A stretch of DNA of 32,000 bases from Nitrospinaceae bacterium. GTDB lineage: Bacteria; Nitrospinota_A; UBA7883; JAJDBK01. Positions 371 to 4,441 of the stretch are shown piece by piece. The notes under the pieces are model-generated. The model was not told the origin of the DNA, ran no database searches, and saw nothing but the letters and a program-made list of their open reading frames with translations. Made by a program: the position numbers and the translations under genes. The stretch spans positions 1 to 32,000 of the forward strand of contig JAJDBK010000005.1 of the NCBI GenBank assembly GCA_029261405.1, read 5' to 3'. Numbering within the stretch: position 1 is the first letter of the stretch; each line of letters starts with the position of its first letter.

Positions 371-1432
371 TTATTCCCCGAATTTAATCCCTTGCGCCGA
401 ATATGAGATGCTGTTTTTTGTCTCCCCGACTATCGGTGTGAATCTGAGTTCCGGGTAACGTTCATAGAGCTTCGCCAGCGGTTGGTGAGCTATCACTTCG
501 CCCGCCTCGCCCGCGTTTGCCATCCTGTACGCCCACACTACAGAGTCGCCTATCGCCACAAGGTGGTTATTGACGTTATGAAAATCGACCTGCCCGATAT
601 CACACCCGATAGCCAGACCGAGCGGTTTGTCTGGAGAATAATCTGAAACAACACCCCACTCCTCAAACAGTTTTCCGATAGCCTCCGCCTCATCCTTGAT
701 GAACTTGATGGAGCATTCGATGAAGTCCTTTTCCAGTTGGCCGCATATCTCCTCGTTGAAATAAGCGATAAAACCGTCACCCGTAAACTTGTCGAAGAAA
801 CCTTTATGTTTCTGGATCAGGTCGCGTGACTGGTTTATGAACGAACTCATCAGGGTCAAAAACCCGTCCGTTCCTTTTGCAAAATTCATCAACTGTTGCG
901 ACCGCCTGATATCCCCTATCACAACTACCGAACGGGTTTTCCCGGCTCTTGTCACCAGTTCATCCGGGTCGCAGATCGATGACCTTATAAATTCGTCCGG
1001 CAGATAACCTTTCCATCGTAATGATCGCTCCGAATGTTCTATCTCCGTCGGACTCATGACAATAAGCGGGTTGATCGGAATTTTCAGCGCCGCGTGTAGG
1101 TAAAACTTGAGGACCGACAAAAATCCGAAGAGGAGAGAACGACTTGCGGAGAAGGTTTTAAACGGAACGGTTTCGGTACCCGTGGCCCAGGTCTCCATCT
1201 GATCGAGTATCTCCGGGCAATCCATCCGGTTGACCGTAATTCTTATGACCTGATCCTCAAGCCCCTTGTCGCTACTGGTTATCTGGCGCAAGACCTTGAT
1301 GAAATCGTTTGCCGCCTGACGGCACTCGGAGTCGTACAGTTGCCCGTTGCTTTGCGAGTAGTAGGCCCACAACGTTTCAAACGTCTGGATCAGAACGAGG
1401 CAACTTGAATGATTGGTTTTATCCATGAGCAA
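371..1432 (-). CDS. Class III nucleotidyl (adenylyl/guanylyl-type) cyclase-domain protein with uncharacterised N-terminal domain
   Basis: 353-aa ORF starting at TTG 1432, with the first ATG at 1426. The C-terminal ~180 aa hand-aligns to the class III cyclase homology domain. Matching segments are VVVIGDIRRS (metal Asp 1), DKFTGDGFIAYF (KxxGD, Lys plus metal Asp 2), LAIGCDIGQV, and AIGDSVVWAYRMANAG (GDxVNxAxR-like; Arg kept, Asn not). The N-terminal ~170 aa carries no motif I recognise. The gene starts 9-15 nt downstream of the K+ channel stop. Confidence 0.7.
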   Translation of the reverse strand: MLMDKTNHSSCLVLIQTFETLWAYYSQSNGQLYDSECRQAANDFIKVLRQITSSDKGLEDQVIRITVNRMDCPEILDQMETWATGTETVPFKTFSASRSLLFGFLSVLKFYLHAALKIPINPLIVMSPTEIEHSERSLRWKGYLPDEFIRSSICDPDELVTRAGKTRSVVVIGDIRRSQQLMNFAKGTDGFLTLMSSFINQSRDLIQKHKGFFDKFTGDGFIAYFNEEICGQLEKDFIECSIKFIKDEAEAIGKLFEEWGVVSDYSPDKPLGLAIGCDIGQVDFHNVNNHLVAIGDSVVWAYRMANAGEAGEVIAHQPLAKLYERYPELRFTPIVGETKNSISYSAQGIKFGE

Positions 1433-1441
1433 TACTATACG

Positions 1442-2269
1442 TCAGTTCCCATCCGTTATCTCTTCCCCGCAGTGGGGACAACTCCTTTTTTTCTGTTTCC
1501 TTCTCTGTAGCTGGTCCACCAGACCGGAGCCGAGAATACCGGCGGGGAGCGCGAACATGCCGACACCGAGTACAGCGATGATCCCCGCAATGACCTTTCC
1601 AACCACTGTGACCGGGTAAATATCGCCATACCCCACCGTTGTCAAGGTCGCCACACCCCACCACATGGTAGCCGGAATACTGGAAAACACATCAGGCTGG
1701 GCTTGCCTTTCCGCCAGATACATAAAACTTGAGGCGACAACCAGAAGGATGGAGACGATGAAAATTGTTATGACAAGTTCCTCTTTACATTGCCGAAACA
1801 CATTGCCCATTGTCCTCATGGAAGAAGCGTATCTGGATAGCTTGAAAATCCTGAATATTCGAACAAGCCGGAAAGCCCGCAGTGTTATCAGGTCAAAACT
1901 TATAAAGAACTGAAGATAGAACGGGAGTATCGCAATAAGGTCGATCATCGCCATTGGTGACCGAACGAATTTTAACCGCCCCCGGAAACTACCTGAATAG
2001 ATCGGCTTTTCAACGCAACTCCAAGTCCTCAACAGGTACTCGACGGAAAATATAAAGACGGATACAGCTTCAAAAATATGCAAAATAGCGCCATATTCGA
2101 CATTGATGTCATGCACGGTTCCGAGTATGGTGGCGACTATATTCAAGGTGATAAGGGTTATCAGCCCGATGTTGATCGAAAAGGCGAGTCCACTTTTATA
2201 TGGAGCTGTTTCCAGAATCGAATGGATACGCTTTCTGGCGTTTTTATTCACCACCACACTCACCATCAC
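1442..2269 (-). CDS. Voltage-gated K+ channel (Kv/KvAP-like, 6-TM Ion_trans family)
   Basis: 275-aa ORF with a 6-TM hydrophobicity pattern. S4 has a positive charge every third residue (RAFRLVRIFRIFKLSR). The pore region carries the K+ selectivity filter (WWGVATLTTVGYGD). The short tail ends RSCPHCGEEITDGN. The start (GTG 2269 or ATG 2266) lies inside the last codons of hgcB. Confidence 0.85.
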   Translation of the reverse strand: MMVSVVVNKNARKRIHSILETAPYKSGLAFSINIGLITLITLNIVATILGTVHDINVEYGAILHIFEAVSVFIFSVEYLLRTWSCVEKPIYSGSFRGRLKFVRSPMAMIDLIAILPFYLQFFISFDLITLRAFRLVRIFRIFKLSRYASSMRTMGNVFRQCKEELVITIFIVSILLVVASSFMYLAERQAQPDVFSSIPATMWWGVATLTTVGYGDIYPVTVVGKVIAGIIAVLGVGMFALPAGILGSGLVDQLQRRKQKKRSCPHCGEEITDGN

Positions 2270-2540: not shown

Positions 2541-2542
2541 GC

Positions 2543-3496
2543 TTACATATATCCACCGATGATCTTTACTGTCAGTATCAATATACCGCCGCCGAAAAGG
2601 AGGGTCAAAGGTCTGATGTACCTGAAAACCTCCCGTTTGACTCCGCTGGGTGAGGTGTAGGGTGTGGCGCCGGTAAAGTTAAGGGCCAGAAACGCTGTGA
2701 CAGGCGGCATGGCCAATATATACGCTATAGCCAGAACAGCCTCCCCGTGGAGCCAGGCGTAACCCGCCACCGGGCAAGCCAGCGAATATCCGAGCCATAA
2801 CCCTTTTACGGTATAGTTTGATGACGGCAGGATCGGAAGCAGAATGGGAAACAGAACGGCGCCACCAATCAGAGCTGTGAGAGACGCAACAACGGACACG
2901 CCGCCATCCAGAAGAGCGAGTAGCCCGGTAATGGCAACCACCGGCCCGAATACATGCTTTACCTCTATTGGGATCAGCGCTACCCGGTCCATAAGCGGAA
3001 AACGTACCCGTCTCATGTAGGGGGTGACTTCTCCTGTCGCAAGATATTCGGGCAGATCAACCGCCATAACCGGTCCGTACACAACTTTAAAACCGGTCTG
3101 TTTTTTTACCAGATGAGCGGCGATTCCAGGACCGCCAAGTTGAGGAACGATGATACGGCGGGTCTCGATTTTCTCTTTCAGACCGGTACCGACTATCATT
3201 CTTACCATCTCTTCCGTGCCGAAAGTCCCTTTGCCAGCGGCGCACCAGACGTTTACCCCTTTTGTGTCGAGAACCAATATCCAGCCATCAACACCGCCAA
3301 GCGCGGACCTCAATGCGTCGAAACTTAACGTATAGTTTCCGGTGGCGAAGATCGGTGATTGAAGGCCCGGTTCACCTATACGATACAGGCCCGGTTCGAC
3401 CCTGCGCTCGCCTCGTCTGTAACCGATCCGCGCGAGAAAATGATCGAGCCTGTTGCTAAAAGTTATTCGACTGTCAGTGGGGAGAGAGATATTCAA
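2543..3496 (-). CDS. hgcA: Mercury methylation corrinoid protein HgcA
   Basis: 317 aa. The diagnostic cap-helix motif GVNVWCAAGKGTFGT is present (Cys85; motif at nt 3230-3253). Flanking blocks WILVLDTKG, IVPQLGGPGIAAH, VVYGPV and MRRVRFPL are collinear with the reference HgcA as I recall it. The C-terminal ~135 aa form 4-5 TM helices. The TTG start at 3496 is preceded by GGAGG inside the 3' end of the upstream CDF gene. Confidence 0.9.
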   Translation of the reverse strand: MNISLPTDSRITFSNRLDHFLARIGYRRGERRVEPGLYRIGEPGLQSPIFATGNYTLSFDALRSALGGVDGWILVLDTKGVNVWCAAGKGTFGTEEMVRMIVGTGLKEKIETRRIIVPQLGGPGIAAHLVKKQTGFKVVYGPVMAVDLPEYLATGEVTPYMRRVRFPLMDRVALIPIEVKHVFGPVVAITGLLALLDGGVSVVASLTALIGGAVLFPILLPILPSSNYTVKGLWLGYSLACPVAGYAWLHGEAVLAIAYILAMPPVTAFLALNFTGATPYTSPSGVKREVFRYIRPLTLLFGGGILILTVKIIGGYM

Positions 3497-4441
3497 TTAC
3501 CCCTCCGGCTCCATTTCGTCGGAACATTCGCTCAACTCTACCTGCACGGTCGAGTGTTTTATCCCCAACTCGCCAGCAAGATATTTTTTTATGGCTATCA
3601 GGGCGGATACGTTGTCGGCTCCGGGAGTTATATTGGCGTGCAGGGTCATCATGGTTTTTTCCGGTGTCAGGCTCCAGGCGTGTACATGGTGGACATCGGT
3701 TATATCCGGGATCGCCTCCTTAAGGTCTCTTCGCAACCGGTCCGTGTCGAGCCATTCGGGCGAACCTTCGAGCAATATATGGGCCGACTTTTTCACAAGG
3801 TCAAAGGCGCTTCGGAAAACAAGAGCCGCCACAAATATCGACAATAAAGGGTCAATGGGAGTCCAGCCGGTCCCTTTTATCACGAGACCACCGACGATAG
3901 TGGCGACCGAGCCGAGCATATCTCCGAGAACATGGACTGCGGCGCCACGCATATTGATATTTTTCCGGTCGCCACCATGCAGGATGACAAACGCTATCAC
4001 GTTGACTATCAATCCGAGGGCGGCAACGATAAGCATCACGTTCCCCTCGACCTCTACAGGTTTGAAAAGACGCACAACAGCTTCGATAACTATCCAACCG
4101 ACGAGGAAAACGAGCGTAATACCGTTTACAAATGCGGCTATCACCTGAAAACGATGGTACCCGTAAGAACGTTTCTCATCCGACGGTTTTTGTGAAATAC
4201 GAAATGCAAACCAGGCTAAGGAGAGAGCCGCCAGATCGGTAAACATATGCCCCGCGTCCGCCAACAGCGCCAACGACCCAGAGATGAGACCGCCAACTAT
4301 CTCAACGAACATGAACCCGCCTGTAAGAACCATGGCGAAAAGAAGACGACTATCGTCACCTTTATGGTCGTGGTGGTGGCGCCCGCTCAAATTTTTTCCC
4401 TTCTGTCCATGAGTGACGCAATGAGTGTCATCTGATATCAC
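3497..4441 (-). CDS. Cation diffusion facilitator (CDF) divalent heavy-metal efflux transporter (CzcD/ZitB-like)
   Basis: 314 aa with a His-rich N-terminus (HCVTHG...GRHHHDHKGDD). TM2 has HMFTD and TM5 has HVLGD, giving the HxxxD/HxxxD site-A tetrad. The C-terminal cytoplasmic domain contains VHHVHAWSL. The start is uncertain: GTG 4441, or TTG 4390 preceded by GAAGGGA. Confidence 0.9.
   Translation of the reverse strand: MISDDTHCVTHGQKGKNLSGRHHHDHKGDDSRLLFAMVLTGGFMFVEIVGGLISGSLALLADAGHMFTDLAALSLAWFAFRISQKPSDEKRSYGYHRFQVIAAFVNGITLVFLVGWIVIEAVVRLFKPVEVEGNVMLIVAALGLIVNVIAFVILHGGDRKNINMRGAAVHVLGDMLGSVATIVGGLVIKGTGWTPIDPLLSIFVAALVFRSAFDLVKKSAHILLEGSPEWLDTDRLRRDLKEAIPDITDVHHVHAWSLTPEKTMMTLHANITPGADNVSALIAIKKYLAGELGIKHSTVQVELSECSDEMEPEG

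Follow-up and report, generated by a model that had tools for sequence, protein, structure and literature searches.

What HgcA and HgcB do natively, and how their expression is regulated, are long-standing open questions for which few clues are available, gene context being one of them. A 32,000-nucleotide stretch of contig JAJDBK010000005.1 from a Nitrospinaceae bacterium (assembly GCA_029261405.1; the whole stretch is referred to below as the window) poses these questions in a particular form, since its minus strand from 4441 to 371 carries hgcAB within a string of five same-strand open reading frames (ORFs), in the order cation diffusion facilitator (CDF) exporter, hgcA, hgcB, voltage-gated-type K+ channel (Kv) and a gene for a cyclase-like protein. 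Has hgcAB become part of a dedicated five-gene module here, or does it lie beside these genes through rearrangement in a genome that packs its genes closely? The evidence presented below, which consists of the gene identities, the geometry of the junctions, the non-recurrence of the arrangement, the packing of the surrounding genes and the composition of the string, points to the second answer. The hgcAB pair is genuine, and its position in this compact genome is probably a lineage-specific juxtaposition and not part of a dedicated five-gene module, with no sign of a function shared with the CDF, Kv or cyclase-like gene. The one-off juxtaposition is favored because close packing is the norm in this genome and because no second case of the combination was found.

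Organization of the five-gene string

Examination of the ORFs and of the junctions between them recovers the five genes and all four junctions as they had been described in the initial annotation. The gene identities proposed there hold for the CDF exporter, HgcA, HgcB and the Kv channel, and the cyclase label is retained only with qualification, given that the protein is without a Pfam or NCBIfam match. The genes of the string are as follows.

3497..4441, minus strand: CDF divalent-cation exporter, ZitB/CzcD type (Pfam, NCBIfam and PDB matches)
2543..3496, minus strand: hgcA, corrinoid protein of mercury methylation (NCBIfam equivalog, cap-helix motif)
2244..2540, minus strand: hgcB, 2x[4Fe-4S] ferredoxin partner of HgcA (NCBIfam equivalog, Cys motifs)
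1442..2266, minus strand: six-transmembrane (6TM) voltage-gated-type K+ channel, KvAP/KCNQ-like (Pfam Ion_trans, KCNQ2 match)
371..1432, minus strand: divergent class III cyclase-homology protein (profile and fold)

The four junctions measure 0, 2, -23 (range -8 to -26) and 9-15 nucleotides (nt), such that the string has the common strand and the short or overlapping junctions by which operons are recognized. The closest of these contacts is the first. The CDF gene ends in GAG GGG TAA, its stop codon (3499-3497) is contiguous with the hgcA start codon TTG at 3496, and the two genes occupy the same reading frame with the stop codon alone between them. A GGAGG sequence at 3506-3502, inside the last CDF codons and 5 nt ahead of the TTG, is predicted to form a duplex of about -10 kcal/mol and is among the stronger Shine-Dalgarno (SD) matches in the window and the strongest within the string. 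TTG 3496 is the sole start that retains the conserved HgcA N-terminus and is also the start used in public call P0001.

At the second junction, the hgcA TAA (2545-2543) is separated from the hgcB ATG at 2540 by a 2-nt spacer. The Kv frame is open only after 2294 and the hgcB stop codon lies at 2246-2244; because every candidate Kv start (2269, 2266, 2263, 2257, 2254 and 2251) falls inside hgcB, the two genes overlap by 8-26 nt whichever start is used, and by 23 nt from the ATG at 2266 that is used in public call P0185. The Kv TGA (1444-1442) is followed by two possible starts of the cyclase-like gene, TTG 1432 after a gap of 9 nt and ATG 1426 after a gap of 15 nt, the latter being the start in public call P0126.

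A separate observation concerns the TAA/TTG at 3494-3499, where read-through of one stop codon would give a CDF-HgcA fusion. Such a fusion would be topologically feasible because the C-terminus of the CDF protein and the corrinoid domain of HgcA are both cytoplasmic. Two adjoining genes share a frame by chance in one case out of three, and reinitiation is favored by the strong SD.

Identity of hgcA and hgcB

Profile matches and conserved motifs identify the hgcAB pair as genuine. HgcA scores 376 bits against the NCBIfam equivalog NF040863 (cutoff 275) in a full-length match that aligns residues 7-311 with profile positions 4-322 of 325. Its translation contains the cap-helix motif GVNVWCAAGKG, which agrees with the N(V/I)WCA(A/G)GK pattern and its Cys ligand, and residues N82-G90 are invariant in an alignment of 25 sequences (the query and 24 relatives). 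HgcB is a borderline case by score, reaching 100.2 bits where the NF040864 cutoff is 99, and carries two CX2CX2CX3CP motifs as well as Cys73, Cys91 and Cys95. The HgcB tail reads CDGEC (C91-x3-C95) and not a vicinal CC, which is also absent in 14 of 52 relatives. The idea that the overlap with Kv had reshaped this tail was rejected, as non-CC tails are common among the relatives.

The nearest relatives of HgcA are 53-60% identical and mostly labelled Anaerolineae/Chloroflexi. Judged by its genes, the host is a diderm with lipopolysaccharide (LPS), BAM and Lol functions, yet the sequences closest to its HgcA are of Chloroflexi type. Horizontal mobility of hgcAB has been described (PMC7438021), and a diderm host with a Chloroflexi-type HgcA fits such mobility followed by long residence.

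Comparison with other hgcAB loci

If the string were a functional unit, how often would its parts be expected to meet elsewhere? The sample available for comparison consisted of 92 HgcA loci (4 from genomes, 8 from HgcA relatives and 80 from metagenomes) whose HgcA proteins are 41-60% identical to that of the window, with at least 1.5 kb of upstream sequence in 50 and at least 2.5 kb of downstream sequence in 49. The CDF, Kv and cyclase proteins of the window were searched against these loci by tblastn at an E-value limit of 1e-3 and by phmmer at a limit of 1. A CDF gene, a 6TM Kv gene or this cyclase was found near hgcA in 0 of the 92 loci, and the recurrence of such neighbors, for which the initial annotation had proposed a comparison of this kind, did not appear, an outcome that the annotation had itself listed, together with a different context in close relatives, as a mark of chance juxtaposition. 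The lone phmmer match of the Kv query, at L064, was set aside as a weak match to a 2TM pore-only channel of another family, encoded at a distance of 3 kb on the other strand. No relative above ~60% identity was found for any of the five proteins, all of which are singletons.

Unbiased clustering of the ORFs neighboring hgcA in the same loci recovered hgcB (75), an ArsR-like helix-turn-helix (HTH) protein (25), an ArsM-like methyltransferase (21), an AbrB/PrlF-like small protein (18), Acr3 (8) and ArsC (7), in agreement with published hgcAB associations (PMC7438021; PMC10349881; bioRxiv 10.1101/2022.10.17.512643). In the closest HgcA relatives (58-60%) the order is ArsR-like gene, hgcA, hgcB and then unrelated genes, with a spacer of 61-110 nt between hgcA and hgcB.

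The locus of Pseudodesulfovibrio mercurii ND132, which the initial annotation had taken as its reference, is indeed ArsR-hgcAB (bioRxiv 10.1101/2022.10.17.512643). With this and the other ArsR-hgcA-hgcB loci of Desulfovibrionaceae, the window shares an hgcA containing NVWCAAGK that is followed by hgcB, and in both cases the pair is probably co-transcribed with the gene just upstream. The differences are that the upstream co-directional gene in the window encodes a CDF exporter and not an ArsR-family regulator, that the hgcA-hgcB spacer is 2 nt as compared with 61-110 nt in the nearest relatives, and that two extra genes follow downstream.

A second group of known loci is flanked by ars genes (acr3/arsB, arsC and arsM; PMC7438021 and L001-L095), and here the likeness to the window is that hgcAB lies beside a metal(loid) efflux transporter. 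The transporter of the window is a CDF protein, for divalent cations, in contrast to Acr3/ArsB, for arsenite. The initial annotation knew of no hgcAB locus tied to an efflux pump, a statement that is too broad with respect to arsenite efflux, as acr3/arsB genes beside hgcAB were reported by McDaniel et al. 2020 (PMC7438021) and Acr3 is a neighbor in 8 of the loci compared here. It stands with respect to CDF exporters, linkage of which to hgcAB was not found in the full-text literature searched. An ArsM-like gene, a further feature of the ars-flanked loci, is also present in the region around the window's hgcAB but lies 27 kb from the pair and on the other strand. This ORF (31038-32000, plus strand, continuing past the window end) matches an NCBIfam arsenite methyltransferase subfamily with 194 bits and is 34% identical to the ArsM-like hgcAB neighbor in L001.

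Packing and composition of the window

The remainder of the window is ordinary core chromosome, with genes for BamA, Skp, LpxD, FabZ, LpxA, LpxI, a ClpB-family ATPase, a Lol-type ABC transporter, PurE, MurA, SurE and FtsH, and thus offers a background against which the junctions of the string can be judged. Of the 22 same-strand junctions outside the string, 15 either overlap or span no more than 19 nt. Genes that are unrelated to each other are joined in this way, such as the ClpB-family gene and bamA (19 nt), the FAD-oxidase gene and purE (6 nt), and surE and murA (16 nt), and a further tight junction is that between lpxI and a PMT_2 gene (-4 nt). The tightness of the string is not above the background of this genome, and the geometry of the string alone says little about function because tight packing is common across the window.

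The composition of the string is likewise that of its surroundings. For the five genes, overall GC content, GC content at third codon positions (GC3) and codon usage all lie within the spread of the core genes, so the windowed composition check suggested by the initial annotation reveals no anomaly. No tRNA was found in the window, and scans of its ORFs with Pfam and NCBIfam gave no transposase or integrase family, with three ORFs (196, 300 and 261 aa) matching nothing. A recent island was rejected on the basis of native composition and the lack of a tRNA or mobile-element family, in agreement with the original view of the region. The larger claim made at that time, namely that hgcAB is hard-wired into a unit tying mercury methylation to metal homeostasis and to K+ and cyclic-nucleotide signaling, is not sustained by an arrangement that occurs in 0 of 92 loci and by packing that is generic.

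Expression signals

A single sizeable non-coding gap lies upstream of the five genes and separates them from a divergent gene.

4442..4638, minus strand: inferred promoter region, a 197-nt AT-rich intergenic gap bounded by the CDF gene and the divergently transcribed Fis-family gene
4639..4911, plus strand: Fis-family HTH protein of 90 aa (Pfam HTH_8, NCBIfam)

The 1-kb segments that hold the gap (4001-5000 and 4501-5500) have a GC content of ~0.445 as compared with ~0.51 elsewhere. The gap contains a weak sigma-70-like match, ATGACA-18-AAAAAT at 4542..4513 (9/12), of a kind that occurs at chance frequency. Across positions 1-5200, the number of promoter-like matches was 7 as compared with 6.7 ± 2.6 in shuffled sequences, terminator-like matches were likewise at shuffled frequency, and the scan gave no minus-strand terminator-like site at any junction of the string. 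With counts equal to those of shuffles, these scans are uninformative on transcription. The argument that the string leaves no room for internal promoters does not hold, as promoters may sit within coding sequence and the scan matches shuffles both ways. Co-transcription of the five genes with translational coupling, which had been proposed together with that argument, is plausible on the basis of the junction sequences.

Candidate control elements were sought on either side of the string. A NiCo/czcD or cobalamin riboswitch ahead of the CDF gene was rejected, since Rfam gave no riboswitch there, whether gathering thresholds were applied or E-values up to 1 were allowed. An operator palindrome in 4442-4638 was rejected as well, the best candidate being a 9-nt imperfect inverted repeat. 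Beyond the 3' end of the cyclase-like gene, neither an intrinsic terminator nor a structured RNA was found (fold z-score -0.1).

As for protein regulators, tblastn with the ArsR-like and AbrB-like neighbors from other hgcA loci found no such gene in the 32-kb window. The nearest candidate regulator of the string is the Fis-family protein, which matches Pfam HTH_8 at 1.5e-11 and the NCBIfam Fis family at 2e-16, a score under the cutoff of the latter.

The partner genes

What is known of the relatives of the CDF, Kv and cyclase-like proteins bears on whether any of them belongs with hgcAB. The CDF protein matches Pfam Cation_efflux (PF01545, 7e-47) and ZT_dimer (PF16916, 7e-7) and reaches 284 bits against the NCBIfam CDF superfamily model TIGR01297 (cutoff 82), and its best PDB matches are SLC30A10 and ZnT8 (1e-36 to 1e-38). 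The translation has HxxxD in TM2 (HMFTD) and TM5 (HVLGD) and a His-rich N-terminus. By these sequence features the protein is a full-length exporter of the Zn-transporter branch, ZitB/CzcD type, with which it shares the complete Cation_efflux and ZT_dimer domains, both HxxxD motifs and the His-rich N-terminus. It differs from that type in falling short of the ZitB equivalog NF002923 (338 bits as compared with a cutoff of 408), and its metal specificity is not assigned for this reason; the DmeF (Co/Ni) family is not reached either (147 bits, cutoff 250). An alternative start, TTG 4390, has a better SD (GAAGGGA), and the product that begins at GTG 4441 is not the one publicly called.

The Kv protein has the features of a 6TM voltage-gated K+ channel, namely an Ion_trans domain (PF00520, 5e-31) together with Ion_trans_2, an S4 segment with periodic basic residues (LRAFRLVRIFRIFKLSR) and the selectivity filter TTVGYGD. 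Its best PDB match is KCNQ2 (4e-40). Like other prokaryotic 6TM channels of the KvAP/KCNQ type, it has Arg or Lys at every third S4 position, the TVGYG sequence and a length of ~270 aa, and it differs from them in a short C-terminal CPHC motif and the lack of a ligand-binding domain. A cyclic-nucleotide-binding domain was not found, Pfam giving Ion_trans and Ion_trans_2 alone. The family is large, with more than 7800 homologues across diverse Bacteria and Archaea. Four loci, representing two Kv homologues, place the gene beside polyamine genes or ExbBD, and the five-gene order was found in none of the four.

At its C-terminus (1442-1480, minus strand), the channel carries a basic stretch and the CPHCGEE motif (RRKQKKRSCPHCGEEITDGN). 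Judged from its sequence, this tail is possibly a small metal- or redox-sensitive element.

The cyclase-like protein required a less direct approach, as it has no Pfam or NCBIfam match even at E 10, including Guanylate_cyc (PF00211). Homology to class III cyclases emerges from profile and structure comparisons. The protein itself matches CyaB (3r5g) at 3e-6 in phmmer, a profile of its family matches P. aeruginosa CyaB at 9e-9, and PF00211 is matched by 18 of 38 family members (best 1.3e-6). An AF2 model (pLDDT 91.5) comprises an N-terminal helical domain of ~160 aa followed by a C-terminal cyclase fold. The top Foldseek matches of this model are Ma1120, CyaB, Cya2 and Rv1900c, with target TM-scores of 0.80-0.86 and E ~1e-9 for the cyclase domains of Ma1120, CyaB and Rv1900c. 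The N-terminal domain, which contains the motifs FETLWAYYSQS and SERxLRWKGYLP, matched no known family.

Is the protein still a cyclase in the catalytic sense? In the alignment of 38 members, D172, K213, D217 and R301, corresponding to the two metal-binding Asp residues, the Lys and the Arg, are invariant. At the position of the transition-state Asn, the alignment to CyaB places Trp298, which is likewise invariant in all 38, and the VNxAxR motif of class III cyclases is replaced by VWAxRM in this family. With CyaB, M. avium Ma1120 and Rv1900c, the family thus shares the fold (TM up to 0.86), both metal Asp residues, the adenine-specifying Lys and the transition-state Arg, and differs in the Trp for Asn, in its own N-terminal ~160-aa domain and in its genomic context, and the window protein differs further in having no PF00211 match of its own. 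Profile and model together make the protein a class III cyclase homologue whose catalytic competence is not assigned. The class III cyclase label of the initial annotation is supported by profile and fold and is weakened by the missing family match and the replacement of the catalytic Asn.

The cyclase-like family is small (59 proteins found, each ~350 aa) and has a context of its own. The four closest genes (51-56% identity; L013:3097-4152, L014:8001-9056, L015:8001-9059 and L098:6096-7172) all lie near lepA-lepB, between pfk and a convergent ligA, with purQ, a cNMP_binding gene, purS and purC beyond. In L098, pfk and the cyclase-like gene overlap by 4 nt and are joined as tightly as in the window. 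A more distant family member stands alone, and the five-gene order was found in 0 of 5 loci of the family. The copy in the window has departed from the pfk-ligA context, and with the unrelated contexts of the Kv relatives this removes support for hard-wiring from the side of the partners also.

Two further features of the pfk-ligA loci were observed. In three of the four (L013, L015 and L098) a cyclic nucleotide monophosphate (cNMP)-binding protein of 152-154 aa is encoded within purQ-purS-purC, at most ~7 kb from the cyclase-like gene, and L013 and L098 also contain an MBL-fold hydrolase with a weak match of the Anti-Pycsar Apyc1-like type. Based on these gene contents, the pfk-ligA context might represent a small cyclic-nucleotide module of cyclase, receptor and phosphodiesterase tied to glycolysis and purine genes. 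A Pycsar-like defense pair of cyclase and membrane effector was considered for the window and rejected, given weak PADLOC matches (PycC at 4e-4 to 7e-3; PycTM against Kv at 0.26) and the housekeeping pfk-ligA-pur synteny of the family. In L014, a mer-type cluster (13388-16338) lies 4 kb from the cyclase-like gene and contains genes for a CsoR-like repressor, MerT-HMA, MerC and a pyridine-nucleotide disulfide oxidoreductase, followed by ArsP.

Models for the origin and expression of the locus

How might hgcAB have come to be arranged and expressed in this way? In the lineage-specific juxtaposition that we favor, a rearrangement confined to this lineage would have put hgcAB into the co-directional string of CDF, hgcA, hgcB, Kv and cyclase-like genes. 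We infer a single transcript that would start in the AT-rich gap of 197 nt ahead of the CDF gene. Translation of hgcA would then occur by termination-reinitiation at the TAA-TTG junction, aided by the GGAGG in the CDF 3' end, and translation would continue into hgcB, Kv and the cyclase-like gene across the 2-nt, overlapping and 9-15-nt junctions, respectively. The hgcAB pair would have lost its usual upstream ArsR-type or AbrB-type regulator and is probably expressed under whatever controls the CDF gene. Its partners would be otherwise independent, as a ZitB/CzcD-type Zn/Co/Cd exporter, a common KvAP-like channel and a cyclase-like protein of the pfk-ligA context, and the tight spacing would reflect genome-wide compaction.

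Several considerations weigh against this reading. The closest genomes available share ~60% protein identity, so the comparison of gene order applies to relationships more distant than genus or family. The HgcA sample is skewed to the Chloroflexi-like subclade nearest the query, with about half of the contigs short-flanked. The CDF-hgcA junction is unusually intimate, with 0 nt between genes that are in frame and the strongest SD of the string inside the CDF gene. Metal(loid)-resistance genes are found again and again beside hgcAB in other loci, and a CDF partner fits this known theme. Finally, transcription of the string is deduced from sequence, and the promoter and terminator scans equal shuffles.

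The alternative that survives best, though still an unlikely one, is that the CDF gene and hgcAB constitute a functional metal-stress operon, in which a Zn/Co/Cd exporter and the corrinoid pair are co-expressed and Kv and the cyclase-like gene are passengers. Such an operon would be a divalent-cation counterpart of the hgcAB/ars theme. In its favor are the in-frame 0-nt junction with its embedded SD and the recurrence of ArsR, ArsM, Acr3 and ArsC around hgcAB in other loci (also PMC7438021). Moreover, the Cys arrangement of ND132 ArsR2 was likened by its authors to that of the Zn/Cd/Pb sensor CadC (bioRxiv 10.1101/2022.10.17.512643). The window itself has no ArsR-type regulator, and control must therefore come from elsewhere. 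Against an operon of this kind, a CDF gene flanks hgcAB in 0 of 92 loci, the literature searched gave no such linkage, unrelated genes are joined as tightly throughout the window, and upstream of the CDF gene there is neither a metal-sensing riboswitch (Rfam) nor an obvious operator. A related proposal, that ArsR control gave way when hgcAB was recruited to a CDF operon for Zn/Co/Cd efflux, with HgcAB made in the divalent-metal stress response, is somewhat less likely still.

It is rather improbable that the five genes are not one transcript and that hgcB, Kv or the cyclase-like gene has an internal promoter of its own within coding sequence, which would make co-expression merely apparent. The best sigma-70-like match in 1-5200, TTGACC-17-TATATT (10/12) at 2608..2580 on the minus strand, does lie in the hgcA 3' end ~40 nt ahead of the hgcB ATG, and another is found within Kv at 2164..2136; the many window genes that are without an SD also hint at expression signals in this lineage that are unlike those of the E. 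coli model. What argues against internal promoters is that promoter-like matches are as frequent in shuffles, that no terminator-like site lies on the minus strand at any junction, and that overlapping or abutting stop and start codons are typical of polycistronic units. The proposal that all five genes form one module, in which corrinoid methyl transfer is coupled with metal efflux, with membrane potential and with cyclic-nucleotide signaling, is highly improbable, since geometry alone speaks for it (a shared strand, gaps of at most 15 nt and a Kv start within hgcB) and against it stand the conserved pfk-cyc-ligA context of the four nearest cyclase-like relatives, the ubiquity and variable context of the Kv family, a Kv in which Pfam finds no cyclic-nucleotide-binding domain, a cyclase without its catalytic Asn, and the absence of recurrence in the 92 HgcA loci.

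The hgcAB context is non-canonical and apparently unique in the sample, and it demonstrates that hgcAB can exist without an adjacent ArsR- or AbrB-type regulator, embedded in a foreign transcription unit, which bears on the prediction of hgcAB expression from metagenomes. If the coupling of CDF and hgcAB were true and recurrent, the association of hgcAB with metal(loid) resistance would cover divalent cations as well as arsenic, and capture of hgcAB into a CDF operon would amount to a natural experiment that points to HgcAB having a role in metal homeostasis. As a single instance in a compact genome, the locus carries little weight in this respect as it stands.

Genes adjoining the string

Divergent from the CDF gene and adjoining the presumed promoter region of the string is a set of three plus-strand genes (4639-7983), which encode the Fis-family HTH protein, a hybrid histidine kinase with CHASE8-HAMP-PAS architecture and a receiver, and a YfiR-like periplasmic protein (TOL_0243 family). 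By domain content the set is a signaling unit with no target assigned. SD use is patchy in the window, with none recognizable for several well-supported genes, among them the Fis-like, hybrid histidine kinase, YfiR-like and FAD-oxidase genes, and strong SDs for hgcA, the Lol-type ATPase gene and ftsH.

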